Counted from the first letter of the stretch, positions 1 through 36,581 are shown. The stretch is 36,582 nt of DNA from Deinococcales bacterium (GCA_043730305.1 JAYTKL010000330.1:1-36582); one strand, 5' to 3'. Numbers and translations are program-made. Notes: generated from the letters alone by a model not told the origin.

Positions 1-127
1 TTTGAATGGATTGAAGTTTGGTACAACCGCGAACGTCGGCACTCGAGCCTTAGCTTCTTAGCACCAACGGTGTTTGAGGAGAAATATGACTCTCGGAACT
101 CCAAGTCCACAAACTCTTGACATTTCA
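1..127 (+). mobile_element. IS3-family insertion sequence, 3' end (transposase OrfB C-terminus and right terminal inverted repeat); continues off the left edge
   Basis: Frame 1 reads FEWIEVWYNRERRHSSLSFLAPTVFEEKYDSRNSKSTNS* (stop 118-120), the typical IS3 integrase tail (YNxxRxHSxL...P). It is followed by ...gtccacaaactcttgacatttCA ending at 127, consistent with the IS3 TG...CA end. Confidence 0.85.
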
Positions 128-664
128 CTCTTCCGACATCCAAGGTGGCAACCAATTCTTTGGAGACAAAGAAATCATGGCTGTAGGCTCAGACGCAAGT
201 GGGAGCGTTGATCCCATTAACACACGACTTGCAAACGCATTTGCTTCACCTTCAGCAGCATCTGATTCATGGCTGACAGATTTCAGATTGCTCGTACCAA
301 ATCGTTCATTCTGAACAGTGTGTGCAAGTTCGTGCGCCAGCAATCCTTGCCCGTCTCTCGAGTGTGGTTGGTATTCGTTGTCTCCAAAGATAATATTTTG
401 CCCTATCGTAAAAGCTCGAGCGTCGAGTTTATTTGCCAGGTCTGGCGCTTGTCCGTCGGCAAAAACCCGAATGTTTGCAAAGTCATGGGCAAATTTTGGT
501 TCAATGGTTTCTCGAGCGCTGGTGTCAAGCGGTTGCCCTTGGTTTTGTTGCACAAACTCGAGCGCTTGATTTTCGGGCGTGTTGAAGTGAGCTTGATCAG
601 GCTGTTGTGCTTGTCGGTCAGCGCGTTCTCTTGTTTGCGTCACAGTTTTTCCTCCTTCGGTCAT
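125..664 (-). pseudogene. DUF4157 (eCIS core / Zn-peptidase-like) domain protein, C-terminally truncated by the IS
   Basis: Motifs GQPLD..R..EPKF.HDF..IRV, ARAFTIGQNIIFG, LLAHELAHTVQ and E.EA match DUF4157. Its stop codon (TGA, 125-127) is the terminal bases of the IS end. Confidence 0.8.
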
Positions 665-894
665 TGGTTTCTCGAGTGTGGTTTGTTAAGTTTGATTTCA
701 ATTGCTTTTGTCCGAGGTGTTTTGAAGGCATGTTCGCGTTTGCTCAACTCGCGTTCTTGTGCCAGCACGTCTGCCCATTCCTCGAGCGTGCGTTTTCCGC
801 TCAGGACGAGAGCTACGGGTGCATTAAAGCAAGTACCTTGGCAAAAGAGCTTACGGGCGCGTTGGACGTATTTTTTGTTGTTTTGTTGTTTCAT
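661..894 (-). CDS. Small basic hypothetical protein (~77 aa)
   Basis: ORF fills the gap in a co-directional operon, and its stop overlaps the next start (ATGA at 661-664). No recognisable domain; start codon uncertain. Confidence 0.45.
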   Translation of the reverse strand: MKQQNNKKYVQRARKLFCQGTCFNAPVALVLSGKRTLEEWADVLAQERELSKREHAFKTPRTKAIEIKLNKPHSRNQ

Positions 895-924
895 GGTTGT
901 CACCGTAAAGATTGAGATCAATGT

Positions 925-2541: not shown

Positions 2542-2554
2542 GATTCACCTCGAG

Positions 2555-5011
2555 TTACGGAACGCAGCTAATATTTTTTAGAATCACGGTGTTCGTACCG
2601 TGGTTGTTCTGTGGGTCGGAAGCAACCAAGGTGATGCGGATGTTGACGCTGTAACCGCTGACTGTACATTCGAGTCCGAGTGCCGAAATCACATTGACTT
2701 TGCCACTGGTATCTGGGGTCAATTTGATGTCTGTTCCAAACGGTGTCAGTTGATCTGAGTTTTGTTTGGCCGCAAACCACTCGAGCGTCACAGGGTCGCC
2801 CTTTGGGTCTTCTGCGCTGCCTGTCAACGTCACAATGCCTGCGCTACCAGGGTTAAAACTTGCTTTTGGACTGCTAATGATGACTTTGTGCGGTGGCGGG
2901 TTGGCTGGGGCTGGCAGCACGTTGACATCCACGAAAGTCAGGTGGCTCAGTCCTTGCGGGTCTGTGGCTTGAATGTTTAAAGTACGCATTCCAACGCTCG
3001 AGAAACTAACATTTGGTTCGCAACCCGTTTTTGGAAAATCATCGGTGGCGAGGCTACTGTTCCAAACAATGCCCGAGCAGGCAAGTTGTTCGTTTGGTTC
3101 GTTGATGTCTGTCGCGGTGACTTGGAAGGGGTAACTGAGGTTTTGATAGATCACCAAAGTATTGTTTGGCGAGCTGACCGAGACCAGTGGTGCGTTGTTG
3201 ATGACTCCAACACTAAAATTTTTGCTGCTGGTCATTCCAGAACTGTCGGTGGCGGTGGCGGTAATGGTTCGTAAACCTTCGGTGGCAAACGCATGGTCGA
3301 GGTTTGCAAAACCACCCGTTGTTGTTCCCAGTAAACCGTCCTTGTTCGATGACCAGGTGATGCCGCAACAGGCTTGACCATCTTCTAAATCTTCGACTCG
3401 GGCTTGCAATTGCGTGTTTCGATTTAAGACCAACGGGCTGGTCAGGCTTGTCAATTCCAAAAGCGGTGGTGTGGCATCAAGGGCGCGTCGGACGGCGGCG
3501 TTGGCGTTAAGGTACTTTTTAACTTTGGGGTCAGAACTGGTGTTGGCGGTCTCGAGTAAAATTTGTTCAACCTGATCGGCACTCAAAGACGGTTTTGCCG
3601 CCCAGATTAACGCCGCCACCCCTGCCGCGAACGGACTCGAGACACTCGTGCCACTGACTTCGTTGGCGGCGTTGGCTGGATTGACTGGGTCGGGTCCGAC
3701 ATAGACTGTAAACGGCGCAAAAATATCAACTTGCTGGTTGCCGTAATTAGAATTGGTGGCACGGTTAACCGAATTTTTGCCAAGACCACCGACGCAGATC
3801 ACGCCAGCGTTTTCGCAGGGGGTGTGCCATACTTTTTCGATACAGTGACCAAGCAAACAGTATTCGCTGTCAACGTCTTTTCCGTCATTGCCAGCCGCCG
3901 CAAAAATCAGTGTTCCTGTTGCCCGTACAATGGCGGTGGCTGCCTCGAACGGGTAGATTGACCATGCCAAATACACTGGTACGGGCGCACCAAAGCTCAT
4001 GTTGATAATTTTTGCCCCACCAATTTCGGCTTGAATCAACGCGCCAATGGCTGTAAAAAAATCGTAAGACGTGTAAACCAAAACCAGATCGGCAACCGGA
4101 CCCGCCGGACCCGCCGCGCCAAAGCCGTTTTCTGGAACGCCTGCGGCTGCCTCGGCAACGTTTGTGCCATGCCAGGGGCATTCAGAACCTCCGCAGGACA
4201 GTAAGTTTTCTGTCCCAATCGGGTTTCTGAGTGGCACGTTGGAACGGGCTTGCCAACCTGTCGGAAAATCGGCGTTGGGTGCAAAGCCCATGTCCAAAAT
4301 CGCAAGTTTGACTTTGTTCTGTAATTTTCCTGCCAACTCGAGCGCCCGCCAAGCTTCGGTGACACCAATGTTTTGTGTGCCGCCCAGTTTCATGTAATCC
4401 CAGTCAAAAGCGCTGTCTGTGTAATTCGCATCTGGACTGGTCGGGGCTTCTTTGGTGTTGTAATCGCGGAAGCTGCTTCCCGAACCAACCCAGTTCATGC
4501 CCACTTTTAAACCTTGCAGCGATTCTCGAGCCGCCACCGCCATTAACTGCTCGCCGTCCAAGCTCGAGACCTGTTGCGTGCCAGTTGCATTTGGTTGCAG
4601 TGCCACCAAATCGCTGCTGAGTTTGCCCGTGTCGGCGCTCGAGACTTTGATTCTGACCAGGTACATGGCTACAAAACCAGGCAATTCTTGGGTTGTGGGG
4701 TTCAAGGTTTTTAAGATTGTGCCTTGCCAACGTGTCACGAAAGCATTTAATTGCGTTTGGTCATTGGTCGAGATGACCAGTTCGTTTTCGACAAAATCGC
4801 TTTGATTGCCCTGATCGTCTTTGAGCCTGGCAATGGGTCGAGGGTCTGTCCCGTTAAGGCTGGGAAGCGGTGCTTGGGTTGGTTTAAGGCTTGTATTGAC
4901 TTGAATGACTGGGGCTGGCACTGGTGGATTCTGGGTGTTTCCATCGCCGCAGGCGATCAGCAGCCCGCTAAGACCAACAACCAAGCAGGCATTTCTGAAC
5001 AGATTTTTCAT
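2555..5011 (-). CDS. S8 (subtilisin-like) serine peptidase lipoprotein with C-terminal Ig/PKD-like domains
   Basis: RBS AAGGAG before MKNLF; lipobox LIAC; catalytic triad motifs AILDMG, WHGTNVA, SGTSVSSP; oxyanion motif AAAGND. Confidence 0.9.
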   Translation of the reverse strand: MKNLFRNACLVVGLSGLLIACGDGNTQNPPVPAPVIQVNTSLKPTQAPLPSLNGTDPRPIARLKDDQGNQSDFVENELVISTNDQTQLNAFVTRWQGTILKTLNPTTQELPGFVAMYLVRIKVSSADTGKLSSDLVALQPNATGTQQVSSLDGEQLMAVAARESLQGLKVGMNWVGSGSSFRDYNTKEAPTSPDANYTDSAFDWDYMKLGGTQNIGVTEAWRALELAGKLQNKVKLAILDMGFAPNADFPTGWQARSNVPLRNPIGTENLLSCGGSECPWHGTNVAEAAAGVPENGFGAAGPAGPVADLVLVYTSYDFFTAIGALIQAEIGGAKIINMSFGAPVPVYLAWSIYPFEAATAIVRATGTLIFAAAGNDGKDVDSEYCLLGHCIEKVWHTPCENAGVICVGGLGKNSVNRATNSNYGNQQVDIFAPFTVYVGPDPVNPANAANEVSGTSVSSPFAAGVAALIWAAKPSLSADQVEQILLETANTSSDPKVKKYLNANAAVRRALDATPPLLELTSLTSPLVLNRNTQLQARVEDLEDGQACCGITWSSNKDGLLGTTTGGFANLDHAFATEGLRTITATATDSSGMTSSKNFSVGVINNAPLVSVSSPNNTLVIYQNLSYPFQVTATDINEPNEQLACSGIVWNSSLATDDFPKTGCEPNVSFSSVGMRTLNIQATDPQGLSHLTFVDVNVLPAPANPPPHKVIISSPKASFNPGSAGIVTLTGSAEDPKGDPVTLEWFAAKQNSDQLTPFGTDIKLTPDTSGKVNVISALGLECTVSGYSVNIRITLVASDPQNNHGTNTVILKNISCVP

Positions 5012-5080
5012 ACGTTCTCCTTTTGGCACGGATTAATCTCGAGGATTCCAAGTGTTTTGATTCAATCATCGGTAATGACC

Positions 5081-5119
5081 TGTCCCAATTCCTAGAGGCA
5101 ATGTCCCAAAATGTCCCAA
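5081..5119. promoter_or_regulatory. Three TGTCCCAA boxes, putative transcription-factor binding sites upstream of the S8 peptidase operon
   Basis: TGTCCCAA at 5081, 5102 and 5112 (spacing 21 and 10 bp, i.e. helical phase). Confidence 0.55.
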
Positions 5120-5178
5120 GCGACTGTCACTATTCGTTTGGGTGACGTCTGAGCTACAGTATTGCCGTGTGTGTTTGT

Positions 5179-5391
5179 TTATTGGCTGGTTTCTGGAATT
5201 GCTTGTACCGCCAATCTCGAGAAGTCCAAACCGCAATTCACGCAAAATCTGACATAGGGCGAAGTGATATTGTGGTTGCACCGCAAGCAACGCTCGAGTA
5301 ACCGTGTTCCGTCGTTGGCACAGTAAAGTTCTTTTGATTGTGTTGGCACTGCACGAAAACACTGTGGGCAAAGTCGGTATTGGATTCGCAC
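5179..5391 (-). CDS. Small double zinc-ribbon protein
   Basis: CPQC...CAND...CLRC...CVNCG cysteine pattern; AGGAGG RBS upstream. Start is either GTG at 5391 or ATG at 5397. Confidence 0.7.
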   Translation of the reverse strand: MRIQYRLCPQCFRAVPTQSKELYCANDGTRLLERCLRCNHNITSPYVRFCVNCGLDFSRLAVQAIPETSQ

Positions 5392-5432
5392 GGACATCTC
5401 CTCCTGCATGGTCGCAAGTATCTTGGGCGTTC

Positions 5433-5451
5433 GGTCATAACTTGGTCATAA
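5433..5451 (-). promoter_or_regulatory. TTATGACC direct repeat, 11-bp period (SARP/OmpR-type operator candidate)
   Basis: ggtcataa at 5433-5440 and 5444-5451, in the divergent intergenic region between the zinc-ribbon gene and the STAND regulator. Confidence 0.5.
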
Positions 5452-5468
5452 GAATTTTGGGTCGCAAC

Positions 5469-8400
5469 ATGAAAATCAGAACGGACACTTTAAAAACTTT
5501 GGCGCTGCGTTTAAATCCTGTCGTTTCTAAGCGATTGGGTGTGGTGTTGTGCGTGCAAGGCGGCGCAGGTTTGGGAAAAACCTGGGTGTTGTCTCAACTC
5601 TTGCCCGAACTCAAATGCCGTTCTCAAACACTTCCCGCCACTGCCAGTACCGCGCAGTGGTTGAGAAGTTTGGTGCGTCCCAAAAAGGTATCTGCCAGCA
5701 GCGAAAAAACCTTGCTTCGAGTTGATGCGGGTGAAATGCTCGAGGATTCACTGGTTTTAAAAGTGTTCTCAGAGTTGCTGCGTGAACTCGCACCGTTTGT
5801 CTTGCATCTCGAGGATGTGCATGATGCCAGTCAGGAGCGTTTGGAATTGCTGGCTGGTTTACAAGCCCTTGTTTTAAAAACAAAAGGAGTGGGGTTGATT
5901 TTGACCAGTCGTCACGAATTGCCTTTCGCAGCAGGGCAGGTTTTACTTGATCCTCTTTCTCGAGAAGAATCGAACGCTTTGCTGCTGAATGAACTTGGCG
6001 CAGAGCTACCGGTTGAAGCGCTTGATTACATTTTTATGCGTGCTCGGGGCAATCCGCTTTTCAGTCTCGAGTTTTTACGGTTTTTAACGCGTTTGGGGTC
6101 ACTGTGGTCGGATGGTAAAATTTGGAATTGGCGTACGCCAACCACGGGTTTTATGCCGGTCACCATCGAAGCCCTGCTCGAGAACTTACTGATGACTGCC
6201 AGTAACGATGTTGCAAGTCGTGCCGTACTGGAGGCATTGGCATTTTTAAAAACCCCGCCAAAAGACTTGTGGCGTTTGGTGGCAGGCTTAACACAAACCG
6301 AATTTGAAGCTGCAATCGGTACACTCGAGGCGCAACAGATTTTGCAAAACGCTGCGTTCGTGCATCCCTTGTATCAAGAGGTGATGGCTGGATTACTGAC
6401 CGACGAGCAAAAACAAAATCGGTCACGGTATTTACTTGGTGCGACAAACCCAGATTTGCGAGCGGCTGCGGTCTTGCTCGAGGAATTAACGGCTTTGGTT
6501 TTAACTGCAAACCTATCAAGCCTTGAAGAGCAACGCTGGCTCGAGCGGGTTTGTTTGGTTGCACAACAATCTGGGCAGCTTCGTTTTGCGAGTCGTTGTA
6601 AGGCGTGGTTGGCAGAACGCAGCGATGCTGATTTGGATTCTTTTTATGTTATCGCCGAAGAGGTTGGCGTTTTTGACCCTACCGAATCCATGCGGCTCAT
6701 GCGGCTGATTTTGGGAAGGCAACCCGATCATTTAAAGGCAGGCACAACCCTGAGCAATCTTTTGTGTGACCGTGACGAATTCATCGAAGCTCAGTTGGTT
6801 CTTGATGCGCTGCCCGAGATATTACATTCAAATCCCATTTGGTTGGGTATGAAAATCGTGTTCTTATGTAAATCTGGTCAATTTCAAGAATTGATTTCTT
6901 TTTATGAAATCCACCCAGAAATTATGACCATACCCGCCAGTTACTACGTGGCTTTTGCGTATTATATTTTAGGACAAGATGATCAAGCTCGAGCCATTGC
7001 CGCGACACGTGCCGAGTATCCAATCGAGAATTTTGAAAAATCGGCGTTGTTCAGTATCGAATCGGGTGTGCTATTACGTCAGGGGCGTTTCCTTGAGGCG
7101 TTGGAATTTGCTGATAAGCACGTCGAGTTGGCTCGGGGTTTGAATGAACCCATTGATTTAGCCACGGCTTTACGGTCACGCTCACAACTTTTTCCACGTT
7201 TGTTGCGTGAGCAAGAAGCTTACGCAGATTTACGCGAAGCCCTCGAGTTGAGTTTAGAAATTGGCGATACCAGAAATGTTTTGGGTTGCCAAGTCAGTTT
7301 GTGTCGTGATTACCTCGATTCCATGCAGTACCAAAAAACTGAGACCTTGTTACTCGAGATTGATGCTTTGCAAAGCCAACTTCCTAAAAACGAAAAACTC
7401 TTTTACACAAAATTAAATTTGAGCGAATTGTATGACAAATGGCAGCCCGCGCACGGCAAGGCATTGGCTCAAAAGTATGTTCGTGCCGCTTTAAGCCTGA
7501 GTGAATCGGTGCAACACAAGCGTTTGCGTTTGCTGGCGCTTTGTCGTGCCGCGATGGTCGAAGCCAGACTAGGGCAAGCGGCACAGGCGCTCAAATACGC
7601 CGAGGAAGCTTGGCAGGTGCTCACAGACCGCAACTCACCGCCCGAAGAGCGTGTTCAATGCCTGCAGGCGCTGGCAAGTGCTTTTGAAGTGAACTTGCAG
7701 CCAAAAATCGCGCTCGAGAAGTTACGCGAAGCCGAAGAATTATCCCAAAAGCATGGTTTTGAACGGTTGCTGCATTCGAGCAAACTCGAGATTGCACGGC
7801 TCGAGCATGACAGCGCGGCTGCCAAACAAGAATTGGCTTGGTTTGAAACCCACGGTACGGCATACATGGCGTACTTAACAAAACACTATTTTCCAGTTCT
7901 CGAGACCCAAATCGAACCCATAACCAGCCTCCAAAGCCCAGACGTTTTTCTGAACGTTCTGGGTTCGGTTCAACTTGTCAAGGACGGTAAAAGCATTTTT
8001 TACCGAGGGCGAAAACGTCTTGATTTTTTGCTGATCTTGCTCGAGGCTCGAATTTCTGGTCAGACTGAAGTCAGCACTTTAGGCTTGATTGATGCCCTGT
8101 ACCCAGACTTGATGGAGATTGAGGGCAAAGCCGCCTTAAAACAATTGGTTTACCAGTTACGCAATGGTCTTGGCTCTAATGTGATTCAAAGCACCGCCAA
8201 GGGTTACATGCTGGGGGGCATTGTCAGCGATGCCGAACAATTTTTGCAAACCAGAGACACCGCGTATTGGCGCGACGTGTACATGGCAGATTTACCAGGT
8301 TTTGAACAATCGAACCTCAGAAACAGGCTGGTCAGTACCGTGCAATCACAACTCGAGATATTGATCGAAACCGACACGCTTGAGACTGCACGCCTTGGAC

Positions 8401-8597
8401 AAATTTTACTTGAAATGGAACCTTATGACCGTGACGTGCTCGAGTTGACCCTACGCGCCTTAAAACAATCTGGGCAATCGACACAAATTGTTTACCAAAA
8501 TGCCAAAGAACGATTTGTTGAATTGGGCGAAAAGCTGCCCAACTCGAGCGATGCTTTTTTAGCGTTGAGTCTTCAAAGTAGGCTGCTCGAGGCATAA
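5469..8597 (+). CDS. STAND-type AAA ATPase / TPR / C-terminal winged-helix-BTAD transcriptional regulator
   Basis: Walker A GGAGLGKT, Walker B LHLEDVH, ARGNPLF motif, central TPR-like helices, and C-terminal LNVLGSVQL...LIDALYP...LKQLVYQLR...GY plus EPYD (SARP wHTH/BTAD). Start moved to ATG 5469 to avoid overlap with the zinc-ribbon gene. Confidence 0.85.
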   Translation: MKIRTDTLKTLALRLNPVVSKRLGVVLCVQGGAGLGKTWVLSQLLPELKCRSQTLPATASTAQWLRSLVRPKKVSASSEKTLLRVDAGEMLEDSLVLKVFSELLRELAPFVLHLEDVHDASQERLELLAGLQALVLKTKGVGLILTSRHELPFAAGQVLLDPLSREESNALLLNELGAELPVEALDYIFMRARGNPLFSLEFLRFLTRLGSLWSDGKIWNWRTPTTGFMPVTIEALLENLLMTASNDVASRAVLEALAFLKTPPKDLWRLVAGLTQTEFEAAIGTLEAQQILQNAAFVHPLYQEVMAGLLTDEQKQNRSRYLLGATNPDLRAAAVLLEELTALVLTANLSSLEEQRWLERVCLVAQQSGQLRFASRCKAWLAERSDADLDSFYVIAEEVGVFDPTESMRLMRLILGRQPDHLKAGTTLSNLLCDRDEFIEAQLVLDALPEILHSNPIWLGMKIVFLCKSGQFQELISFYEIHPEIMTIPASYYVAFAYYILGQDDQARAIAATRAEYPIENFEKSALFSIESGVLLRQGRFLEALEFADKHVELARGLNEPIDLATALRSRSQLFPRLLREQEAYADLREALELSLEIGDTRNVLGCQVSLCRDYLDSMQYQKTETLLLEIDALQSQLPKNEKLFYTKLNLSELYDKWQPAHGKALAQKYVRAALSLSESVQHKRLRLLALCRAAMVEARLGQAAQALKYAEEAWQVLTDRNSPPEERVQCLQALASAFEVNLQPKIALEKLREAEELSQKHGFERLLHSSKLEIARLEHDSAAAKQELAWFETHGTAYMAYLTKHYFPVLETQIEPITSLQSPDVFLNVLGSVQLVKDGKSIFYRGRKRLDFLLILLEARISGQTEVSTLGLIDALYPDLMEIEGKAALKQLVYQLRNGLGSNVIQSTAKGYMLGGIVSDAEQFLQTRDTAYWRDVYMADLPGFEQSNLRNRLVSTVQSQLEILIETDTLETARLGQILLEMEPYDRDVLELTLRALKQSGQSTQIVYQNAKERFVELGEKLPNSSDAFLALSLQSRLLEA

Positions 8598-10759: not shown

Positions 10760-11415
10760 TGGAAAAAATTGGTGTTTTAATCGTTGATGACCACCCCATC
10801 ATCCGCAGTGGTTTGCGTTTGCTGCTCGAGCTTGAAGAGGGCATCGAAGTTGTCGCCGAAGCCGAAGATGCCGAAGTTGCGTTGCGGCTTGCCTCCGAAT
10901 TACAACCTGACGTAATCCTGATGGACATTCAATTGCCGTCCATGAACGGGATTGAAGCCACACGGCGGATTAAAACCGAAAATCCTCGGATTCAGATTTT
11001 GATGCTGACCATGTTTCAAGATGACGATTCGGTCTTTGCGGCGGTGCGAGCTGGAGCACAAGGGTACTTGTTAAAGGGCGCAAACCAATTCGAGATTGTT
11101 CAAGCCATTCGCGGGGTGGCTCGAGGGGAGGCGATTTTTGGCGCGGGCGCAGCCGAACGGGTCATGCGATATTTTGCCGCGACCCGTCCAGTTTCTTCCC
11201 CAGCCTTTCCAGAATTAACCCCTCGAGAACACGAAATTCTCGAGTTGATCGCCAAGCGCTGTAGCAACACCGTGATCGCTGGGCGGCTTGACCTGAGTCC
11301 AAAAACCGTGCGGAATTACGTCAGCAATATCATTTCTAAATTGCAAGTGGCAGACCGTTCGGAGGCGATTTGGGCAGCCAAAAATGCAGGCATTGGTGAA
11401 AAAAACGAATTTTGA
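10759..11415 (+). CDS. NarL/LuxR-family response regulator
   Basis: VDDHP, PDVILMD phosphoacceptor, GYLLK, and LuxR HTH LTPREHEIL...LSPKTVRNYVSNIISKL. ATG overlaps the kinase stop (TAATG). Confidence 0.95.
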   Translation: MEKIGVLIVDDHPIIRSGLRLLLELEEGIEVVAEAEDAEVALRLASELQPDVILMDIQLPSMNGIEATRRIKTENPRIQILMLTMFQDDDSVFAAVRAGAQGYLLKGANQFEIVQAIRGVARGEAIFGAGAAERVMRYFAATRPVSSPAFPELTPREHEILELIAKRCSNTVIAGRLDLSPKTVRNYVSNIISKLQVADRSEAIWAAKNAGIGEKNEF

Positions 11416-12443: not shown

Positions 12444-13700
12444 TTATTTCGTGTTTTTGCCATCAATTTTCTCGAGTACCTCGGCGGTTTTTGCCACCAC
12501 ACGGTCAATGTCGGCGCGTTCGATGACCAAGGGCGGCAGGTAACGAATGACCGTTGGACCGGCTTGCAATGCCAGAATATGATGCTCATGCTCGAGCGCG
12601 TGAATGTAGGGTGCGCTGTGCTCCTTCAGCTCCATGCCGATCATCAAGCCCAGACCTCGGACTTCTTTGATTTTGCTCGAGTTGATCTTGCGCAATTCTG
12701 AACGGAAGTATTCGCCGTTTTCAAAGGCGCGTTCGGAGAGCTTGGCTTCTTTCATAAAACGAATTGCGGCTATGCCTGCCGCCATCGCCAGCGGATTGCC
12801 GCCAAAGGTCGTGCCGTGACCACCTTTTGGCATGGCGTTCGCCACCGCGTCGGTCATGACGAGCGCCCCAATCGGCACGCCGCCCGCCATCGCTTTGGCG
12901 AGGGTCATCAGGTCGGGTTTGACCGTGCAACCGCCGCCCAGGGCACATGATGTACCCGCGCATTTGGGGTCGCAAAAGTTTTGAAAGCCAAACATTTTGC
13001 CCGTGCGGCAAAACCCGGTTTGAATTTCGTCCAGAATCAGCAACGCGCCGTGTTTGGTGCAAAGTTCTCGGGCTTTGCGAATAAATTCGGCGTGTCCAGG
13101 ACGCACACCACCTTCACCCTGCACGGATTCCATAATCACAGCCGCCGTGTCACCGTCAATGGCTGCCTCGAGCGATGCCAGGTCGTTGTAGGTGACGAAC
13201 GTGGTCTCATGAACCAGTTTGCCGAATGGTTCGCGGTATTTGGGTTCGTAAGTTAACGCCAACGCGCCCAAGCTGCGACCCGAAAAACCACGTTTCATGG
13301 CAACAAACTTCTCGCGCCCTGTGGCAACTCGAGCGAACTTGATGGCGGCTTCGACGGCTTCGGTCCCAGAATTGCAGAGGAACACGCGTTTTAAACCCTC
13401 TGGCGTGACCGAGGTCAGTTCCGCCAGAAACTCGGCGCGTTTGTCATTGGGCAGGGTTTGCGGCAGCATCACCAGGTTTTCGGCTTGAGCCTGAATCGCT
13501 TTGGTGACGCTCGGGTTGCTGTGACCGATGTTGGCAACGCCGTAACCGCCAACACAATCGATGTATTCGTTGCCGTCAATGTCCCAGACTTTCGCGCCCA
13601 GTCCCTTGCTAATCACGATTTCGTGTTTGGTGTACACACCAGAGTCATATTTTAGTTCGGTCTCGAGCAATTCTTTGCTGCGTGATGCGGTAAGTGTCAT
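12444..13700 (-). CDS. lysJ: [LysW]-aminoadipate semialdehyde transaminase / acetylornithine aminotransferase (class III PLP)
   Basis: GGAGG RBS; YDSGVY.K N-terminus, [38 protein letters not shown] (PLP Lys), [11 protein letters not shown]. Resembles Deinococcus-Thermus LysJ. Confidence 0.85.
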
Positions 13701-13788
13701 TGAAATTCCTCCTTCAAACGTGCCCGAACATCTTACTCGAGGCATTGGGCGCTGTGAACCCCAGTCCAAAACCATCAGAAACCCGAAC

Positions 13789-13842
13789 CGTGAGTTAAAC
13801 CCACTCTTCAAACTTGAGTGTCCTTGTATAATATATTAGGAT
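13789..13842 (+). promoter_or_regulatory. dnaJ promoter with HspR HAIR-like operator
   Basis: CGTGAGT-N7-ACTCTTC (13789-13809) and half-site CTTGAGT (13813-13819) versus HAIR consensus CTTGAGT-N7-ACTCAAG. TTGAGT-17bp-TAGGAT promoter, plus TATAAT at 13827. Confidence 0.6.
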
Positions 13843-13876
13843 TCGAGGTTGACCTCGAGCGCGGAGAGAAAACACT

Positions 13877-15013
13877 ATGGACTATTACGAATTACTGGGT
13901 GTCAGTAAAAATGCCGATGCCGACGAGATCAAACGGGCGTATCGTGCGCTGGCATTAAAATTTCACCCCGACAAAAACCCAGGCAACAAAGAAGCCGAAG
14001 AAAAGTTCAAACAGATCAACCAGGCGTACGCCACGCTGTCCGACCCCGAAAAACGCTCCCATTTTGACCAATTTGGTTCAGAGCCACAAAACGGCAGTCC
14101 ATTTGGGCAATCGGGTGGTTTTGCCGGCGGCGATCTGTTCGACCTGTTCAACAGCGTCTTCGGCGGCGGCGATGTCTTCGGACAGCAAACCAGGGGTCGC
14201 GGCGGACGCAACCGCGCCCAGCGCGGCGAGGATTTGCAAGTCGAGACCAAAATCAACCTCGAGCAAGCCCGCTCTGGCGCGGATGTGTTGGTTGAAGTGG
14301 ACAAGCTCGAGCATTGCACGCACTGCAACGGCTCGAGAAGCGAACCGGGCGGCAAGGGATTGCAAAGCTGCCAAACTTGCGGCGGTCAAGGGCAAGTGCG
14401 TCATCAGCAACGCACCATTCTGGGCAATTTTATGACCGCAGCGCCCTGCCCGACCTGCCACGGCACGGGCGAAATCAACCCCGAACCCTGCACGGTCTGT
14501 CATGGTCGTGGACGCACCATCAAAGCCGAAAAAGTCACGGTCACACTGCCCAAAGGCATTGACGGCGGTTACCGCCTGCGCGTTTCAGGCGCGGGCAACC
14601 AAGGCATCAACGGCGGACCCGCCGGCGACCTGTACGTCTTCCTCGAACTCGAGCCTCATGCGAAACTTGAACGTGAAGGCGACGACCTGCATTACGTGTT
14701 ACCGATTGGCATTGCCCAAGCCACTTTGGGCGGAACATTCGCCGTGCCGACCTTGGACGGCGACCAAACCCTCGAGGTACACGCTGGCGCACAACCAGGC
14801 GACACCCTGAAACTGCGCGGCAAGGGAATGCCACGTCTGCAATCTCGAGGCGAGGGCGATTTGATCGTGACGCTCGAGGTCAGTGTGCCGAAAAAACTTT
14901 CAAAACGCGCCCGAGAATTGCTCGAGGAATATGCCAAAGAAGTGAACGAAGACATCTCGCACAAAAAACCTGGTTTTTTTGAGAATCTGGGCAAAGCCAT
15001 TCGCGGCGAATAA
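13877..15013 (+). CDS. dnaJ: Molecular chaperone DnaJ
   Basis: J-domain with HPD, G/F-rich linker, four CxxCxGxG-type zinc-finger repeats, C-terminal GDLYV domain. Confidence 0.98.
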
Positions 15014-15029
15014 AACAATACAATTCGAG

Positions 15030-15058
15030 AAAAGGCAACCCGTGAGGGTTGCCTTTTT
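15030..15058 (+). terminator. Intrinsic terminator after dnaJ
   Basis: AAAAGGCAACCC-GTGA-GGGTTGCCTTTTT. Confidence 0.9.
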
Positions 15059-15137
15059 GATTTCGGATAAACCCGTGCAAAACACTACATTTTACCCTCG
15101 AGCGACCAAAACCCAAAAAGTGCGCTACCGTAAAGCC

Positions 15138-15797
15138 ATGAAACCAATCCTGTTGATTGCCAGCATCGCCGCCCTCAGCTCGAGCGCCTGGGCAGCCTGC
15201 AACCACCCGTACTTCCCATCCGCCGCCAACACCACCTGGCTGTACCAGAGCAGCCTGAAAAACACCGAGCACACCACCAAAATCATTTCGAACAGTGGCT
15301 CGAGTTTTGTGCTGGAAAACAATTTCGGGAAACTTAAAGTGAAAAACACCATCAAATGCGAATCCGATGGCAGTTTGACTCAAAGTGAATACCCAAGCAT
15401 GACAGGGCTATCCGCCAACATGAAAATCGAAACTCTCTCAAGTGAAGGTGTTGCTTTTCCAGCAGCCGCCAAATGGGTGGTCGGGGCAAGTTGGACAAAT
15501 TTGTTTAAAGTCAAAATATCAGTTGCGATGGGAGAACAAACCATGACCCAAAGCGGCACCAAGAAAATCAGCAGCAAAATAGCCGCCGAAGAAACCGTGA
15601 AAGTCCCAGCAGGCACATTCACCGCCTTGAAAGTCATGCAAACCATCAATCAAGACATGATGATGACCATTGCTGGGAAAAGCACACCCGTCAAAAACAC
15701 GATCACCACCACATCATGGTACGCGAAAAACGTTGGATTGATCAAAAGTGTTGCCTCGAGCATCACGACGCAATTGATCAAATTTACAAAACCTTGA
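15138..15797 (+). CDS. Secreted protein, DUF3108/TapB-like beta-rich family
   Basis: Signal peptide MKPILLIASIAALSSSAWA; motif ETVKVPAGTF.ALKV...WYAKNVGLIK. TACCGT -10 box 6 nt before the ATG. Confidence 0.7.
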   Translation: MKPILLIASIAALSSSAWAACNHPYFPSAANTTWLYQSSLKNTEHTTKIISNSGSSFVLENNFGKLKVKNTIKCESDGSLTQSEYPSMTGLSANMKIETLSSEGVAFPAAAKWVVGASWTNLFKVKISVAMGEQTMTQSGTKKISSKIAAEETVKVPAGTFTALKVMQTINQDMMMTIAGKSTPVKNTITTTSWYAKNVGLIKSVASSITTQLIKFTKP

Positions 15798-15849
15798 GGC
15801 TCGAGGTTCAGATGCTGACACAAATCCAGCAATTGAGCTTGCCACCCTC

Positions 15850-15957
15850 TCTTGACCATAAAACGCACCTAACGGGCATGGTCGCTCATCCCCAACCCTT
15901 CTCCCATCTTGACCATAAAACGCACCTACGGGCATGGTCGCAACATCAGGAGAAGGG
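15850..15957. repeat. Two copies of a 35-36 bp hairpin element associated with a REP-like stem-loop
   Basis: TCTTGACCATAAAACGCACCT(A)ACGGGCATGGTCGC at 15850-15885 and 15907-15941. The second copy lies between CCCTTCTCC (15896-15904) and GGAGAAGGG (15949-15957). Confidence 0.85.
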
Positions 15958-16044
15958 AGTTTAGGTTTTTTACACATGTGGCTCGAGGGGTTTAGCTTTC
16001 TTTTGTTTGGTAATTACGCTCGAGAGGCACGTTTTGTGGTCATT

Positions 16045-16833
16045 TCACTCGCCACGGAAATCGGGTTTGCGCTTCTCGAGGAAGGCTTTTGCGCCCTCTT
16101 TCATGTCTTTGGTGGTGGACACCATGCCGAACAGATCGGCTTCGATTTCCAGACCTTGATCGAGCGTGACACCCAAACCACGACGCACGGCTTCTTTGGC
16201 AAGCCCAATGGCGACAGGACCGTTTTTCAGAATCAATTCAGCGAGCTTTTGCGCCTCCTCGAGCGCATTGTCCGCCACACGGTTGACCAAACCCATCTCA
16301 AGGGCTTCTTGAGCGCTTACATGACGTGCTGTCAGGATCAAATCAAGGGCGCGACCTTCGCCAATTAAACGCGGCAGGCGTTGCGTGCCGCCAAAACCAG
16401 GAATAAGCCCCAGACCAACTTCGGGCAGACCCAGTTTGGCATTGCTCGAGGCAACCCGCAAATCGCAAGCCAGCGCAAGCTCCAGACCGCCACCAAGCGC
16501 GAAACCGTTGATGGCGGCAATGGTCGGAATTGGCATGGCAGCCACCGAATTGGTGATGTCCTGCCCGTTGAGTGACAATTCGCGCCCGCCAAAGGCATCT
16601 TCGAGGCTGGTAAATTCAGAAATATCTGCGCCAGCCACAAACGCTTTTTCGCCCTCGCCAGTGATAATCAAAACCTGGGTTTCGCTCGGCTCGAGTGCCA
16701 CCTCGAGCGCCTCGGCGATTTCGCGCAAAGTATCGTTATTCAAGGCATTAAGGGCTTTGGGGCGAGTAATGGTTAAGGTGGCGATGGCGTCGTTGAGGTC
16801 AAGGCGGATGTTCTTCCAATCAAAATCGTCCAT
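16045..16833 (-). CDS. Enoyl-CoA hydratase / crotonase
   Basis: RPKALNALN, AFVAGADISEF, AINGFALGGGLELALACDLR, LGLPEVGLGLIPGFGGTQRLPRLIG. Confidence 0.95.
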   Translation of the reverse strand: MDDFDWKNIRLDLNDAIATLTITRPKALNALNNDTLREIAEALEVALEPSETQVLIITGEGEKAFVAGADISEFTSLEDAFGGRELSLNGQDITNSVAAMPIPTIAAINGFALGGGLELALACDLRVASSNAKLGLPEVGLGLIPGFGGTQRLPRLIGEGRALDLILTARHVSAQEALEMGLVNRVADNALEEAQKLAELILKNGPVAIGLAKEAVRRGLGVTLDQGLEIEADLFGMVSTTKDMKEGAKAFLEKRKPDFRGE

Positions 16834-16878
16834 GCCATAGCATACAACCTGCTTGAGATTCACCTGCGCAGCTCGAGT

Positions 16879-17964: not shown

Positions 17965-18000
17965 ATGTTTACAGCATAACGCAAATCTCGAGAAACAGAA

Positions 18001-18030
18001 GAACGGCAAGCGCTTAAAGGCTTGCCGTTC
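18001..18030 (-). terminator. Intrinsic terminator after the large surface lipoprotein
   Basis: GAACGGCAAGC...GCTTGCCGTTC 11-bp stem followed by TTCTGTTT on the minus strand. Confidence 0.75.
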
Positions 18031-21132: not shown

Positions 21133-21234
21133 ACTTCCTCCAATAATTATTTTGTTGCTCGAGGTTGGGGTTTAAAGTCGTTGCTGGTTTTGGGTGGTCT
21201 TATGTGCGCCTCGCTTTCTTCTGTTTGTGCTCAG

Positions 21235-24181: not shown

Positions 24182-24242
24182 AGGTGCTGCTGGACTTTGT
24201 TTTTAAGAATTATTTTTTTTGGTTTAGGTTTCTCGAGACATC

Positions 24243-26046: not shown

Positions 26047-28767
26047 TCAACGCGGCAACACGAGTTTGGCAGTGACCTCATCTAAGTTATCACGGAAATC
26101 TTGGCGCACTGGCAGGTTGTTATTTTCGAGCGTCAGAATGGCTTTTTGGTAGTGCATTAGTGCGTTTTGATGTTGACCGAGTTCGTAATAAATCACACCC
26201 AAATTATTTAACGCAATGGCGACACTGGTTGGGTTCTCGAGTTGTTGTTGAAGTTCTAAACTTCTAGTTTGAAATCCAAGTGCTTTCTGGAATTGATTTC
26301 GCTGCCCGTAGTACATGCCAATGTTGGTCAGCACCCGTGCCATACCTTGAACATCACCGAGGGTTTCACGGATGCTCAAGCATTCCAACAGATGGCTTTC
26401 GGCTTTGGAGTCGTTTAACGCCATGTAAACCACACCCATGCCACCAATAGAATCTGCCAGCCCACTTTGATTGCCTGTGGCGCGTCGAATCCGTCCCGCT
26501 TTTTTGTGATACTCGAGCGCCGCTTGGTACTCTTTTTTGTGCTCCGCAAAAAATCCGAGCAAATTGCACGTTTCGCTGATAGCATTTTGAGCTTTTAGCG
26601 TATTTTGGTTTTCCAGAATCTCGAGGGCGTTTTCCAAAATAATTTTGGATTGGTCAAAATCGCGGTATTCGCGTTGCAAAATCCAAGCCCTGGTGTTGAG
26701 CAATCTGGCTTTCAAGACGGGTTCTAAACTGTTGGAAATACTGGCGGCAGTCTCGAGTTCTTCGAGGGCTTGTTGATGTCGTCCAAAATTCTCTAAGGTG
26801 TTGGCGGTTTCCAGGAACACTTCGGCTCTGGCATCGGTGTTTTGTGCGGTGTTCAAGCTGCGCTCGAGCCATTTTAACGCTTCGGTTAAATCTCCGCGCC
26901 CAGCTTGAGCGCGACCAAATTCGAGAAAAAATTGCTGTGCGTGTTGTTCGTCTTTTTCATCCCAGACGCTTTTGGCTTCCCAGTAATGTCGTGCGGTGTG
27001 TTGGTCTTTGATTTGCGCGGCGCGGTAATGCAGTAAAATGCGTCTTGAAGGACTTAATTCGCTTTCGACCACTTCGCGGACAATGTCGTGAACAAAAGTT
27101 ATTTGATTGTTTTCAATGCTCACCAGCGCCGCGTGCTCCAATTCCTCGAGTGCCAAGTTTAGTTCCTCGAGCGAACGTCCTGAGATGCTGCGCAAGTGGG
27201 CGAATGTGGCAAGGTTACGAATGCAGAGCGCCTCGAGCACTTGTTGGGCGGGTTCGCTTAAACTTTGCAAGCGCAATAGCACCATTTCAACGGCTTTGGT
27301 TTCGCCGCTGACAGCAAATTGCAGCAACTCGAGCACAAAGAATGCGTTACCGCCAGAGCGTTTTAACAAAGCGGGAATGTCCACTTGTTTGGCATCTAAA
27401 GACAACGCCAATGTTCTGATTGCGCTTTCGGACAAGGCGTTTAAGGTCAGGTGCTTGGCTTGGTACGGGTTAAGCAGGGTTTCAACTTGGTTGCGTGATG
27501 CTTGCAAGTTGCGTTTGGTCAACATCAATTTGAGCGTACTTTGGGTTGTGCGCTCGAGCAAGAACACCAGAAACTCGAGGCTGGCAGTGTCAATCCATTG
27601 CGCGTCATCAATCACCAGCACGGTGCAAGAATTGGGCAGCAAGCTTTTCACGGCGTTAAAGAGCACCAGAGACTCGAGGGTTATATTTAAACCTACTTCG
27701 ATCAAATCTGGCACTAGGTTTGCCAGGGCGGCTTGTTCACTGACGTTTAAACGTTGCACGGCATCTGGGAATTGTTTGAAATGCTGACGTACCAGTGACT
27801 CGAGCACACTGTAGCGCAAACTTTCTTGATGGCAGCGTAACCATATGATGCTGTGCTGTTCAAGGGCATGGCAAACCTCGAGCGCCAGTCGTGATTTGCC
27901 CGCGCCTGGTTCGCCGTGGATCACCACAACCCGTTCGTTGCGCAGAAAGTCCACAATGGTTCGCAACTCGGTTTCGCGCCCGACAAACGGCACTTGATGG
28001 CGTTCGGTGGGTGTGCTGGTTTTCACACCCAACTCGAGTTGCAAGGCGGCACGACACGCCTCAAATTGCGCAGAACGCACCAATTCGAGGGCATCTTTGG
28101 TGCGTTGGCTGGGTTGAACCCCCAGTTCATCTTGCAAAACTTTGCTTAACGTGTTGTACGCCAGCGCCGCCTGATCGGTTTTGCGACTTGCGCCACATGC
28201 CAGAATCAAATGACGGCAAGCATCCTCGAGCGGGTCGCCGCCCTGGCTTTGTGTCACCTCGAGATAAGTGACTGCCGTTTCGTAATTGCCGAGTTGCAAT
28301 TGCGTCCGCCCCAATCTGGCGGCAAATTCGCGGCGTTCAAAAATCAGGGATTCTCGAGTGGCGTACAACCAATCTTCAAATTCTGCGCCCAAACCCAATT
28401 CCCAATCGGTCAATCGCAAACCCGTCAGAAAACCACCGCGCCATAAGTTCCAAATTGTTTCATCGGTTTGGCTTGCACCGACCCGCCACTCGAGCACATC
28501 ACACGCAATATTTTTCCCCAAAGCCAGCGAATCCGCATCCACCTCGAGCGCGTCTTGCCCAAGGGCTTTGACCACCAGATTTCGCGCCACCGAAATGTTA
28601 TTTAGGGCATTCGGCGCTTCAGACCACAAAATATTGCCCAGCACCCGCCTTGAGGTTCGACCCTCGAGCGCGAGGTAAGCCAGCATCGAAATGTGCTTCA
28701 CACCAAGTTTGACCGCCCGACCAGAAACGGTCAGGTTGGGTGTGCCGAGCAGTTCGAGACGGAGCAT
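26047..28767 (-). CDS. SARP/BTAD-AAA(STAND)-TPR transcriptional regulator (AfsR-like architecture)
   Basis: N-terminal LRLELLG.P...MLAYLALEG..SR..L...LW; BTAD FEDWL...RE and DPLE...L.DELGVQPS; PFVGRETEL, Walker A GEPGAGKS, Walker B VIDDAQWID, SGGNAFF, FVHD; C-terminal TPRs. Confidence 0.9.
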   Translation of the reverse strand: MLRLELLGTPNLTVSGRAVKLGVKHISMLAYLALEGRTSRRVLGNILWSEAPNALNNISVARNLVVKALGQDALEVDADSLALGKNIACDVLEWRVGASQTDETIWNLWRGGFLTGLRLTDWELGLGAEFEDWLYATRESLIFERREFAARLGRTQLQLGNYETAVTYLEVTQSQGGDPLEDACRHLILACGASRKTDQAALAYNTLSKVLQDELGVQPSQRTKDALELVRSAQFEACRAALQLELGVKTSTPTERHQVPFVGRETELRTIVDFLRNERVVVIHGEPGAGKSRLALEVCHALEQHSIIWLRCHQESLRYSVLESLVRQHFKQFPDAVQRLNVSEQAALANLVPDLIEVGLNITLESLVLFNAVKSLLPNSCTVLVIDDAQWIDTASLEFLVFLLERTTQSTLKLMLTKRNLQASRNQVETLLNPYQAKHLTLNALSESAIRTLALSLDAKQVDIPALLKRSGGNAFFVLELLQFAVSGETKAVEMVLLRLQSLSEPAQQVLEALCIRNLATFAHLRSISGRSLEELNLALEELEHAALVSIENNQITFVHDIVREVVESELSPSRRILLHYRAAQIKDQHTARHYWEAKSVWDEKDEQHAQQFFLEFGRAQAGRGDLTEALKWLERSLNTAQNTDARAEVFLETANTLENFGRHQQALEELETAASISNSLEPVLKARLLNTRAWILQREYRDFDQSKIILENALEILENQNTLKAQNAISETCNLLGFFAEHKKEYQAALEYHKKAGRIRRATGNQSGLADSIGGMGVVYMALNDSKAESHLLECLSIRETLGDVQGMARVLTNIGMYYGQRNQFQKALGFQTRSLELQQQLENPTSVAIALNNLGVIYYELGQHQNALMHYQKAILTLENNNLPVRQDFRDNLDEVTAKLVLPR

Positions 28768-28816
28768 TGAAAATCAGTTTACTGGAAAGTTGCGCTTGAG
28801 GTTGTGATGCTCGAGA

Positions 28817-30498: not shown

Positions 30499-30583
30499 AA
30501 CAACAGTATAGTGCGATTTGGTCATTCTGTCTGCCCAGATGTTGTACGTTGGGAAATTGTTACTGACTCGAGCAAATCCAAAC

Positions 30584-31618: not shown

Positions 31619-31638
31619 GGTTTTAGTGTACTCGAGAT

Positions 31639-33240: not shown

Positions 33241-33354
33241 GAAATCCTCGAGAACACGACCGATTTAAACCATCAGTCACAAACGAGTGTTCGTTAGACT
33301 GTGGCTCAGCTTACGCAAAATGGTGATCAAAACACAAGTTTATTGCAGTCGATT

Positions 33355-34839: not shown

Positions 34840-34945
34840 GAATAAGCTTAACCCTGGGAACGAAATTCATGCTCGTCTCGTAAAGAGCGTTAGAGTAGAA
34901 CCATGCACCTCGAGCCAAACGCTCGAGCATTCAAGGAGGAAAACC

Positions 34946-35278
34946 ATGAAGCACTTGAAATACTGGGGATTGGCAATCGTGGCAGCAATCGTTTTTACCG
35001 CCTGTAGCGCAGAACAACAAAATACATTCAGACGTGACGTGCTGAACCTGGCAAACGCCAGACATTACATTATCTTGTACGGCGTGAACGGCAGCGAACT
35101 TTTCAGGGGCGAATTGAACGGTAAAGTCACTCGAGCCGAAAAGGGTGAAGGCGGCAATGGTGGCGAGTACGTGTACTGGTTTGACCCTGCCGGAAAATAC
35201 TGGCAAACCGATTTGCCGTACTTGGTGACAACCGACAACAACCGTACCGGTGTGCTGACCAGCCCATTGAAGCGCTAA
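34946..35278 (+). CDS. Small lipoprotein of unknown function
   Basis: AAGGAGG RBS; MKHLKYWGLAIVAAIVFTAC lipobox. Confidence 0.75.
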   Translation: MKHLKYWGLAIVAAIVFTACSAEQQNTFRRDVLNLANARHYIILYGVNGSELFRGELNGKVTRAEKGEGGNGGEYVYWFDPAGKYWQTDLPYLVTTDNNRTGVLTSPLKR

Positions 35279-35303
35279 AAAACTCGAGCTTACCCAAAAG
35301 CGC

Positions 35304-36581
35304 TTAGATTCTTAAGCGCTTTTCTGCGGTCTGCCTCGCCAATGCCGCCTTGGTTATTTCGCCCAGTCCCTCGAGTGCGGCGGCGTGTTTTAACCAGTTG
35401 TACGGGCTTCGCGGTCGCACGCTGATGCGTTCACTTAAAATGGCTTGCGCCAGGTCATAACGCCCACCGCGCAGTGCGGCTTCGATCAAGGTTTTTAAGA
35501 CCGCGTCGCGTTGCGCGTGCGACCCTCCAAATTCGTGAATGCGGCGGCGAATGGGGAACAAATGCTCGATCACCTGTGCAAAATTCCCGCGTCCAAACTC
35601 GAGGATGGCTTTGCAGACGGGCAGCCCAATCTCGCGGGTCATGGCAACGTTGTTCATGCGAGGGTTCGGATTGCTGGCAAGCCATGCCTCACGGCTTTGA
35701 ATCAAGTTTTGCGCCTCGAGTTCAAGACCTGCACCCACAAACGCCATGGTCATGTGCATGTCGTTGAAAGCATAAAAGGCGGGTTCGGTCTTGTGCAACC
35801 AACGGCTTGCCACGGCTTTAAAGCGTTTCAGTTCGTTGTGACCTTCGAGTTTTAAACGCCACAACAACGCACTGGCATCGAGCAATTCCAATGCCAAGTC
35901 GCCACTGGCTGAAGTGAACAGCGCCGTGTCAAAAATCTGGCGCACCCGTTCAATGTTGCCTGCCTCGAGCGCGAACAGGGCATAATGCCACCAGTTGTGA
36001 ATCAGAAAATAATTGTTGGTTGTCCAGTCTTCCGCTCGAGCGTCGTAATAGCCCATTCCATCGTCAAAACGCCCAGTTTCCTCAAAGGTGTGACCCACCG
36101 CATGAAGCGCCCAAACGTCTTTGGGGTTGCGTTGCACCGCGTCCAAACCCAGCTCGAGCGCCCGATCATGCTGGTGGCATTCCTCGAGTCCAAACGCCAG
36201 CATTCCGAGAACATTCGAGTAATTCGGATCGTCTTCAGACCAGGCGGCAATGGCTTGCGCCGGACGATCACGCAGCATTCTCGAGTTGCCCGTAAAAAAA
36301 TCAATTTGATGCCCCACCCCAAGCGCCAGCAAATCCCTTGGGTGCGAAATGGTGATTTCCTCGAGAATTCGTCCAGCACCCAAAAAATCACCTTCAAGCA
36401 AAGATTCGGCGGCGGCAAGATGCAGGCGCTCTCGGGGCTTTAGGGTTGTGGGTTGCTTGAATGCCAAAAATGATTCTCGAGCGGCTTGGGCGTCCTGTGG
36501 TTCTGTGCCGAGCACGCCAATGTAGGCTTGCAATACCCGTGCGAGCACAAAATTTGGATCGGCTTGAAGCGCCAAATTGAT
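35304..36581 (-). CDS. TTC38-like tetratricopeptide repeat protein (5' end outside window)
   Basis: HPRDLLAL, GMLAFGLEE, DVWALHAVGH, HNWWHYALF, DASALLWRL, FNDMH and GGSHAQRD motifs characteristic of the TTC38 family. Confidence 0.88.
   Translation of the reverse strand: MNLALQADPNFVLARVLQAYIGVLGTEPQDAQAARESFLAFKQPTTLKPRERLHLAAAESLLEGDFLGAGRILEEITISHPRDLLALGVGHQIDFFTGNSRMLRDRPAQAIAAWSEDDPNYSNVLGMLAFGLEECHQHDRALELGLDAVQRNPKDVWALHAVGHTFEETGRFDDGMGYYDARAEDWTTNNYFLIHNWWHYALFALEAGNIERVRQIFDTALFTSASGDLALELLDASALLWRLKLEGHNELKRFKAVASRWLHKTEPAFYAFNDMHMTMAFVGAGLELEAQNLIQSREAWLASNPNPRMNNVAMTREIGLPVCKAILEFGRGNFAQVIEHLFPIRRRIHEFGGSHAQRDAVLKTLIEAALRGGRYDLAQAILSERISVRPRSPYNWLKHAAALEGLGEITKAALARQTAEKRLRI

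Follow-up and report, generated by a model that had tools for sequence, protein, structure and literature searches.

Dense and conserved CTCGAG sites in a family of Deinococcales: a palindrome kept genome-wide

Short-word systems closest to CTCGAG

To our knowledge, three decades of work have produced no agreed mechanism for HIP1, the highly iterated palindrome of cyanobacteria, and the main models presuppose a cognate methyltransferase. Dcm/Vsr very-short-patch repair is another DNA-level process that shifts short-word frequencies genome-wide. In the available parts of the cited papers, HIP1 (GCGATCGC) and the alternate HIPs of cyanobacteria are each described as one hyper-abundant palindrome occurring in all reading frames and in spacers (PMC4390886; PMC5861425), with a cognate methyltransferase in nearly every HIP genome (Elhai, PMC4390886). 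A second group comprises the DUS and USS of Neisseriaceae and Pasteurellaceae, which in the portions available of PMC2817400 and PMC2397512 are asymmetric 9-12-mers at about one copy per kb. Furthermore, the available portion of PMC4752239 (S3 Table) lists active orphan m6A methyltransferases of CTCGAG itself in Marinithermus hydrothermalis, Meiothermus ruber and M. chliarophilus, while giving none for M. silvanus.

The word described here, CTCGAG, resembles HIP1 in being kept between species beyond codon needs and in being clade-wide yet patchy between sister lineages, and the HIP1-like behaviour claimed in the original prediction is borne out: the word is genome-wide, frame-independent, conserved between species and lineage-wide. 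It differs from HIP1 in phylum, in sequence and in density (6,486 per Mb versus 300-2,700 per Mb for HIP1), and from the alternate HIPs in having 67% GC rather than at least 75%, and again in density (theirs being 1,000-2,000 per Mb; available text of PMC4390886). Moreover, the redundancy of neighbouring copies over 20-45 bp has no counterpart in the available parts of PMC4390886 and PMC5861425, and no cognate methyltransferase was found in the family. CTCGAG works as a HIP, although not as HIP1, and the enzyme that marks the HIP class was not found in the genomes searched.

With DUS and USS, as far as the accessible text of their descriptions goes, the word has in common a clade that carries competence genes, an approximate doubling of the matching peptide, persistence against mutation, thinning in low-GC genes and some copies that lie several steps from their orthologues. 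Unlike them, it is a palindromic hexamer about seven times denser, and close pairs are avoided whereas DUS and USS pairs serve as terminators. The Meiothermus and Marinithermus case concerns the same word in the same order, in lineages that appear moderately enriched (observed/expected, O/E, about 7-8 in sampled loci); the matching enzyme families differ in that they were not found in genome G000 or the family, apart from one weak match. Compared with Dcm/Vsr bias, the effect is far larger, Vsr is found in 0/19 family genomes, C5 enzymes are patchy and CTTGAG is enriched. As for an XhoI/PaeR7I restriction-modification system, the XhoI endonuclease (PF04555) was found in 0/19 family genomes and in 6/151 genomes of the order. 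No published account of CTCGAG over-representation in Deinococcota was found in a search that left outside most subscription journals and the supplements of bioRxiv 10.64898/2026.06.24.734251.

Abundance, retention and spacing

The window, that is, the whole stretch of 36,582 nucleotides analysed (Deinococcales bacterium, GCA_043730305.1 JAYTKL010000330.1), contains 210 copies of CTCGAG (5.7/kb) in all three reading frames of genes and in spacers, against 9.0 expected from base composition and 10.9 from a second-order Markov model. The word stands far ahead of all other hexamers, the runners-up being words that overlap it. The excess of about 20-fold that had been claimed is real, and the hand count of 83 copies in the first 15 kb was exact; of the proposed range, 42 to 36366, the start was right but the end was not, as the last site begins at 36476. 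All three spacer sites that had been singled out, at 13854, 21158 and 24232, are present and lie between genes. The features of the window are as follows.

42..36481, no strand: dispersed CTCGAG copies (n=210), from word positions and counts; reading frames were assigned genome-wide
12444..16863, no strand: block syntenic in five genomes, with 37 site places in any genome and 20 of the 37 in all five
12733..12738, no strand: CTCGAG in G001 and TCGGAG in four genomes including this one, a site several bases off its orthologues
13854..13859, no strand: spacer CTCGAG flanked by a LysJ-like aminotransferase gene and dnaJ, its position shared by G000, G001, G002, G003 and G005
21158..21163, no strand: spacer CTCGAG, from word positions, between genes
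24232..24237, no strand: spacer CTCGAG, from word positions, between genes

The best matches of window proteins were Thermus-type LysJ and DnaJ models, with scores below the model cut-offs, and a metagenome scan with the window's DnaJ returned distant relatives only (best 55% identity). Metagenome runs X3-X5 contain relatives of the window among the matches listed.

Genome G000, an assembly of 4.27 Mb in 648 contigs (N50 9.8 kb) in which no 16S rRNA was found, carries 27,690 copies or 6.49/kb, with an O/E of 16.4 under the second-order Markov model. Density ranges from 3.1 to 9.5/kb across its 307 contigs of at least 5 kb, and contig ends show no excess (227 of 1,296 ends, 210 expected). When genes were called with a self-trained codon model (3,956 genes, 84% coding), the density was 6.4/kb in genes and 6.7/kb in non-coding DNA, where the O/E is 13.7 and 4,636 copies were observed versus about 78 predicted with the sites masked. 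The coding copies are read as CTC GAG (14,557), TCG AG (5,120) or CT CGA G (3,385), and together number 23,062 versus 2,894-3,014 in five synonymous shuffles that preserved protein and per-gene codon use, a 7.8-fold excess. The word is exactly six bases, flanking bases bringing mild preferences only, over 1-3 bp. Counts per kb are near Poisson (variance/mean 1.09), and no phasing, helical phasing included, was seen up to 600 bp. The lowest GC decile of genes has 4.9 copies per kb and the upper deciles 6.8-7.0, the longest CTCGAG-free gaps are mostly low in GC, and restriction-modification islands mostly still have 4-6 per kb.

These counts leave virtually no chance that preferred codons or amino acids, or an artefact of assembly or library, are the cause. 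In high-GC Thermus-like genomes the codon pair CTC GAG is indeed frequent, at about 1/kb, the same level as the reversed control word, but here the density in spacers equals that in genes, the excess survives synonymous shuffling and CTC makes up 12.5% of the leucine codons not preceding glutamate. An artefact is likewise refuted by the presence of the excess in 19/19 independent genomes, by positions conserved across species and by the unremarkable contig ends. The original prediction had doubted codon preference because of the several frames and the intergenic sites, and named Markov and codon-shuffled models as the check; the enrichment neither vanishes in these nor is confined to one contig, being present on all large contigs and in every family genome.

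The sites are also retained. In codon alignments of 56 genes from six congeneric genomes (about 86% identical), synonymous differences affect 6.8% of CTC codons within sites versus 43.7% elsewhere, and 5.0% of GAG codons within sites versus 33.8% elsewhere. CTCGAG sites are actively kept, with synonymous change 6-7-fold lower inside the site than in the same codons elsewhere. Among ortholog pairs, 6,063 sites were concordant and 2,489 discordant, and the comparison of orthologues that had been proposed finds site positions common to species beyond codon needs. Around conserved sites, synonymous divergence was 0.83-0.87 of expectation at 1-3 bp and 0.99-1.05 beyond, so that there is neither a protected patch nor a hitch-hiking tract. 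Short conversion tracts or hitch-hiking of flanks had been hinted at by 40 events; with more data the effect was about 1.3-fold versus 1.06-1.19-fold in controls, and it was gone after control for codon and context.

Retention has reached the proteins. Leu-Glu is the most enriched dipeptide of G000 proteins (2.34 times expected) while Glu-Leu is at expectation (8,583 versus about 8,390), and in the available text of PMC2817400 peptides matching uptake sequences are similarly doubled in the proteome. CTC GAG encodes 74% of all Leu-Glu pairs in G000 and 82% of the isolated ones, versus 3.7% expected from codon use elsewhere; the arithmetic on these last two values gives an isolated site an advantage of about 4.8 log-odds units. 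The genes for ribosomal proteins and rpoBC are no exception, with CTCGAG at 33 of their 38 Leu-Glu pairs.

The advantage depends on neighbours. With a neighbour at 6-8 bp, a Leu-Glu pair has a probability of 0.21 of being a site; the value climbs to 0.52 at 15-17 bp, 0.70 at 27-35 bp and 0.82-0.83 at 60-149 bp, and is 0.80 beyond, with no long-range saturation. The curve, obtained from genomes of genus g1, was repeated in G004 and G005, and for control codon pairs it is flat or far weaker. Similarly, nearest-neighbour distances below 20 bp occur in G000 at 0.26-0.53 of expectation, and a site is absent from the partner genome in 87 of 271 cases (32%) with a conserved neighbour at 6-14 bp versus 573 of 3,774 (15%) when isolated. 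Copies less than about 30 bp apart are partly redundant, a pair bringing little more than the advantage of a single one, and a site loses some of its advantage to a neighbour within about 30-45 bp.

Distribution of the word and of candidate enzymes

CTCGAG reaches 4.3-6.8/kb in 19/19 genomes of the family, which span five genera and are all drafts (57-94% complete) except one, the single-contig G011. The phylogenetic comparison that had been called for shows a lineage-wide bias, with other genera lower except for one genome: in a phylum sample of 331 genomes, with densities computed on rounded genome sizes, the family level was attained outside the family by 1 of 316, namely G264 (7.0/kb), and G221 of the same genus has 0.3/kb, a 23-fold difference. 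Genus g7 (106 genomes), which appears to be Deinococcus-like, has 0.009-0.36/kb; g9 (31 genomes), probably Thermus-like, has 0.6-1.6/kb, near the level of the reversed control word; and the seemingly Meiothermus-like g13, g22 and g24 (30 genomes) have 1.4-3.5/kb, and the few g13 loci sampled show an O/E of 7-8 relative to base composition. With these presumed lineage labels, the gradient runs from depleted in the Deinococcus-like (below 0.4/kb) through neutral in the Thermus-like and about 7-fold in the Meiothermus-like lineages to its highest level in this family.

Genome G000 encodes several C5, beta, D12 and gamma-type methyltransferases. Those examined with their neighbours lie in patchy restriction-modification groups, and clustered matches never span the family (clustering covered at most 30 loci of each family-wide search and left out PF02384 matches). 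With the PF07669, PF00145 and PF02384 profiles, no family-conserved methyltransferase was found in the 19 family genomes; searches with PF01555 and PF02086 found no conserved enzyme in 5 of the 19 genomes each (PF01555 also in G000), and methyltransferase motif scans of G000 found no conserved orphan enzyme. C5 methyltransferases are patchy in the family, with none in G008, and single-contig G011 yielded no candidate common to the family. Draft genomes can hide genes, and an enzyme may belong to another family than these profiles cover.

From relatives within the order, two Eco57I-family methyltransferase types were recovered, which probably underlie the published CTCGAG specificities: a PaeR7I-type, 49% identical to an enzyme beside an XhoI-family gene in G031, and a TaqI-type closely related to M.TaqI. 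Neither was found in G000. The search for an orphan XhoI/PaeR7I- or TaqI-like methyltransferase, advised in the original prediction, therefore locates the types in the phylum, and in the family only a single match. The PaeR7I-type occurs in 17/331 genomes and, as that weak match of 32% identity, in 1 of 14 other family genomes. It does not track CTCGAG density: genus g13 averages 2.15/kb in the 6 genomes that have it and 2.19/kb in the 17 that do not, g27 has it in 3/3 genomes yet only 0.7-0.9/kb, and g22 is without it in 4/4 genomes yet has 2.5-3.4/kb. The TaqI-type was found in 0/15 family genomes but in 31/31 of g9, a genus without enrichment. It may be that CTCGAG methyltransferases follow from the abundance of sites, as a protection, rather than bringing it about.

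These findings weaken the methylation-directed repair ratchet originally suggested. In an Elhai-type ratchet, a DNA modification would direct repair so that site-creating mutations are kept and site-destroying ones reverted, here by an enzyme that the profiles missed. The active orphan enzymes of Marinithermus and Meiothermus (PMC4752239, as far as available) speak for it, as do the draft state of all family genomes but one and the prediction of fewer gains beside an existing site (section 3.4 in the available part of PMC4390886), which matches the data. Against it, density is independent of the PaeR7I-type, the TaqI-type is missing from the family genomes searched and so is Vsr, flanks are unprotected beyond 3 bp, and the model levels off near one site per kb, well below the 6.5 here. 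Moreover, no depletion of one-mismatch words was found, and CTTGAG, the would-be T:G precursor, is enriched rather than depleted in spacers (O/E 1.6). We regard the ratchet as distinctly unlikely.

Origins of sites and a possible reader

In spacers, transition variants of the word are 1.6-2.7-fold enriched and transversion variants stand at 0.8-1.2; the former turn over fast, mostly by exchange with CTCGAG itself, and could reflect partial recognition or decay. Of the discordant ortholog pairs, which all share G000 and are not all independent, 27% differ by 3-5 bases versus 11% in control words, and 25 of 55 singleton gains lie at least two steps from every other genome (control 17%). When stepwise change under selection was simulated, multi-base distances made up 6-12%. 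Some neisserial DUS copies, in the available text of PMC2397512, are likewise too unlike their orthologues for single steps. Such distances could mean that a mutational or micro-recombination process writes sites several bases at once, after which they are shielded from mutation, and an exchange between CTCGAG and C-N-AGG-G words in the Arg frame, seen 61 times versus 9 expected from a fitted stepwise model, points the same way. The multi-base excess remains in the Arg frame despite matched controls, but not in the synonymous Leu-Glu class (0.68/0.27/0.05 versus 0.66/0.29/0.05), amino-acid divergence in the simulation was about double the real one, and a control context without possible sites also held four times too many three-step pairs (32 versus 7.7 expected); the Arg-frame residue is therefore no proof of one-step creation. 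Template switching, a candidate for such writing, is countered by the depletion of 8-mer palindromes in G000 (0.25-0.84). Direct writing, partly explained away by the matched controls, appears highly doubtful.

Other palindromes have been nearly purged. Among palindromic hexamers, 24 of 64 have an O/E below 0.15 in G000 genes, versus 6 of 2,654 filtered non-palindromic words; GGCC stands at 0.02 and CGATCG at 0.05 in G000, and the reversed word GAGCTC occurs 0-25 times per genome in 16/19 family genomes. Competence genes, which DUS and USS hosts have, are present as well, with ComEC in 18/19 family genomes and an intact comEA-comEC pair in G000, a ComEA-type gene lying upstream of comEC. As ComEC is also found in 10 of 14 control genomes, including Deinococcus radiodurans and Thermus thermophilus, its presence does not discriminate.

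At roughly one copy per 150 bases throughout the genome, CTCGAG behaves as a signal that is actively kept. The exact word, the similar advantage of each isolated copy and the redundancy over some 30 bp would best fit a bound protein. On sequence comparison, it is quite possible, if short of probable, that a factor bound to the sites skews uptake or recombination of DNA. The reader would be a protein of natural transformation or recombination that binds DNA sequence-specifically, with a putative footprint of some 20-30 bp; the palindromic word makes a dimer probable. Alleles bearing the site would win in DNA exchange between relatives, a molecular drive as proposed for uptake sequences, and the near-purge of other restriction-type palindromes would be the negative side of the same frequent exchange. 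This placement is suggested by the proteome effect, the multi-base origins of some sites and the low-GC thinning, which recall uptake sequences, and by strong avoidance of restriction sites, which suggests frequent DNA exchange between strains. It is suggested, too, by HIP1, which raises transformation efficiency (10.1101/2024.09.10.611283; PMC13756078, as far as available).

Several points count against the uptake reading. The transformation effect of HIP1 depends largely on methylation, and no such enzyme was found here; known uptake sequences are longer, non-palindromic and about 1 kb apart (available part of PMC2397512) rather than 150 bp; restriction-modification islands mostly retain 4-6 copies per kb; and the non-discriminating ComEC, the vanished flank hitch-hiking and the Leu-Glu multi-base excess lost with matched controls offer no help. 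Drive and ordinary selection cannot be told apart by sequence comparison alone. The original prediction had named an uptake signal and a chromosome-organising site beside the ratchet, and both stay candidates. An architectural or chromosome-coating protein that binds CTCGAG genome-wide, with ordinary selection keeping as many non-overlapping sites as proteins tolerate, fits all of the features shown equally well. The equal densities of genes and spacers, a redundancy of steric range without long-range saturation and sites even in the ribosomal-protein and rpoBC genes favour it, and such a role was argued for HIP1 by Xu et al. (available part of PMC5861425). However, counts near Poisson without phasing do not recommend it, the 23-fold gap between G264 and G221 is hard to reconcile with an essential structural role, and the purge of other palindromes is left unexplained. 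We consider this protein an unlikely answer.

To summarize, the family offers an independent and denser HIP-like case in another phylum, in which the methyltransferase was not found and the known enzyme is uncoupled from density. It also provides natural contrasts, namely the 23-fold gap within one genus and the gradient from Deinococcus- to Thermus- to Meiothermus-like lineages to the family, and the neighbour-redundancy curve sets a physical length scale for which any mechanism has to account. A bolder form of the uptake reading, which is conceivable though on balance somewhat unlikely, is that these Deinococcales have a methylation-independent 'self' signal, in which a protein with a 20-30-bp footprint would read unmodified CTCGAG and bias uptake or allele replacement, so strongly that the word became several times denser than HIP1 and proteins were rewritten. 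Genetic work in Meiothermus and relatives would gain a practical handle if the word does bias transformation. Should the 'self' signal be real, cultured Meiothermus-like species, in which it takes a weaker form, would allow the HIP problem to be tested with word and methyltransferase uncoupled.

Arginine-frame sites and palindrome avoidance

In orthologue alignments between species, CTCGAG sites read in the arginine frame (xCT CGA G) exchange with xCN AGG G far more often than is predicted by the stepwise model, which is a fitted model of site change one base at a time (61 exchanges seen compared to 9 expected). Furthermore, AGG makes up 15% of arginine codons in the arginine-frame site context, but only 4% elsewhere before G. 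Examples of this alternation in orthologue alignments of window genes are as follows:

10759-11415, gene with an alternating site at position 361
12444-13700, gene with alternating sites at positions 367 and 628

Word counts over the 4.27 Mb draft assembly from which the window comes (G000) have shown that restriction-type palindromes are extremely avoided across the genome, with GGCC at an observed/expected ratio (O/E) of 0.02 and several hexamers reduced to a handful of copies (GCGCGC, 6; GGGCCC, 3; AGGCCT, 5; CCGCGG, 11; GAGCTC, 15). On a qualitative reading of the phylum table (331 genomes), GAGCTC is also very scarce in several site-rich genomes. Among the 8-mer palindromes centred on CTCGAG, CCTCGAGG has an O/E of 0.25 in G000, 4-fold below the prediction from its flank frequencies, and the remaining three lie at 0.75-0.84 genome-wide. 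The scarcity of CCTCGAGG possibly reflects avoidance of an 8-base restriction site.

Repeats, regulators and site-poor genes

Several other features of the window were recorded:

1-135, contig-end sequence present in multiple copies, holding the first CTCGAG (at 42)
5304-8597, large AAA/STAND-type regulator
15815-15990, multi-copy intergenic repeat of two similar units of ~35 bp each
16879-18009, AlkZ-like DNA glycosylase
26047-28767, large AAA/STAND-type regulator with BTAD and TPR domains

The intergenic repeat, which is REP- or MITE-like, matches dozens of places in all five congeneric genomes and is covered at very high depth by sequencing runs. The contig end resembles the terminal part of an IS3-family transposase gene. 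Neither the two regulators nor the glycosylase showed any link to the motif. Elsewhere in G000, many of the long genes nearly without sites resemble ABC-transporter substrate-binding or membrane proteins, as judged by eye from their N-termini, and these have ordinary GC content; low-GC foreign genes are also found among the long genes almost free of sites.

Methyltransferases and site density in relatives

An M.TaqI-like methyltransferase (loci L415-L421) is present in 31/31 genomes of the probably Thermus-like genus g9, in both g30 genomes and in genome G025, a distribution that is the pattern of a conserved housekeeping gene and not of a mobile R-M gene. Seven of the eight genomes of genus g5 share a C5 methyltransferase that is followed by a conserved ORF of ~430 aa (loci L042, L044-L048 and L050).

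In the phylum table, the otherwise CTCGAG-depleted family f3 includes G264 at 7.0 sites/kb, its congener in genus g43, G221, at 0.3 sites/kb, and G220 (genus g42) at 3.6 sites/kb. As such, G264 against G221, together with G220, provide natural contrasts for tracing the cause of site abundance.
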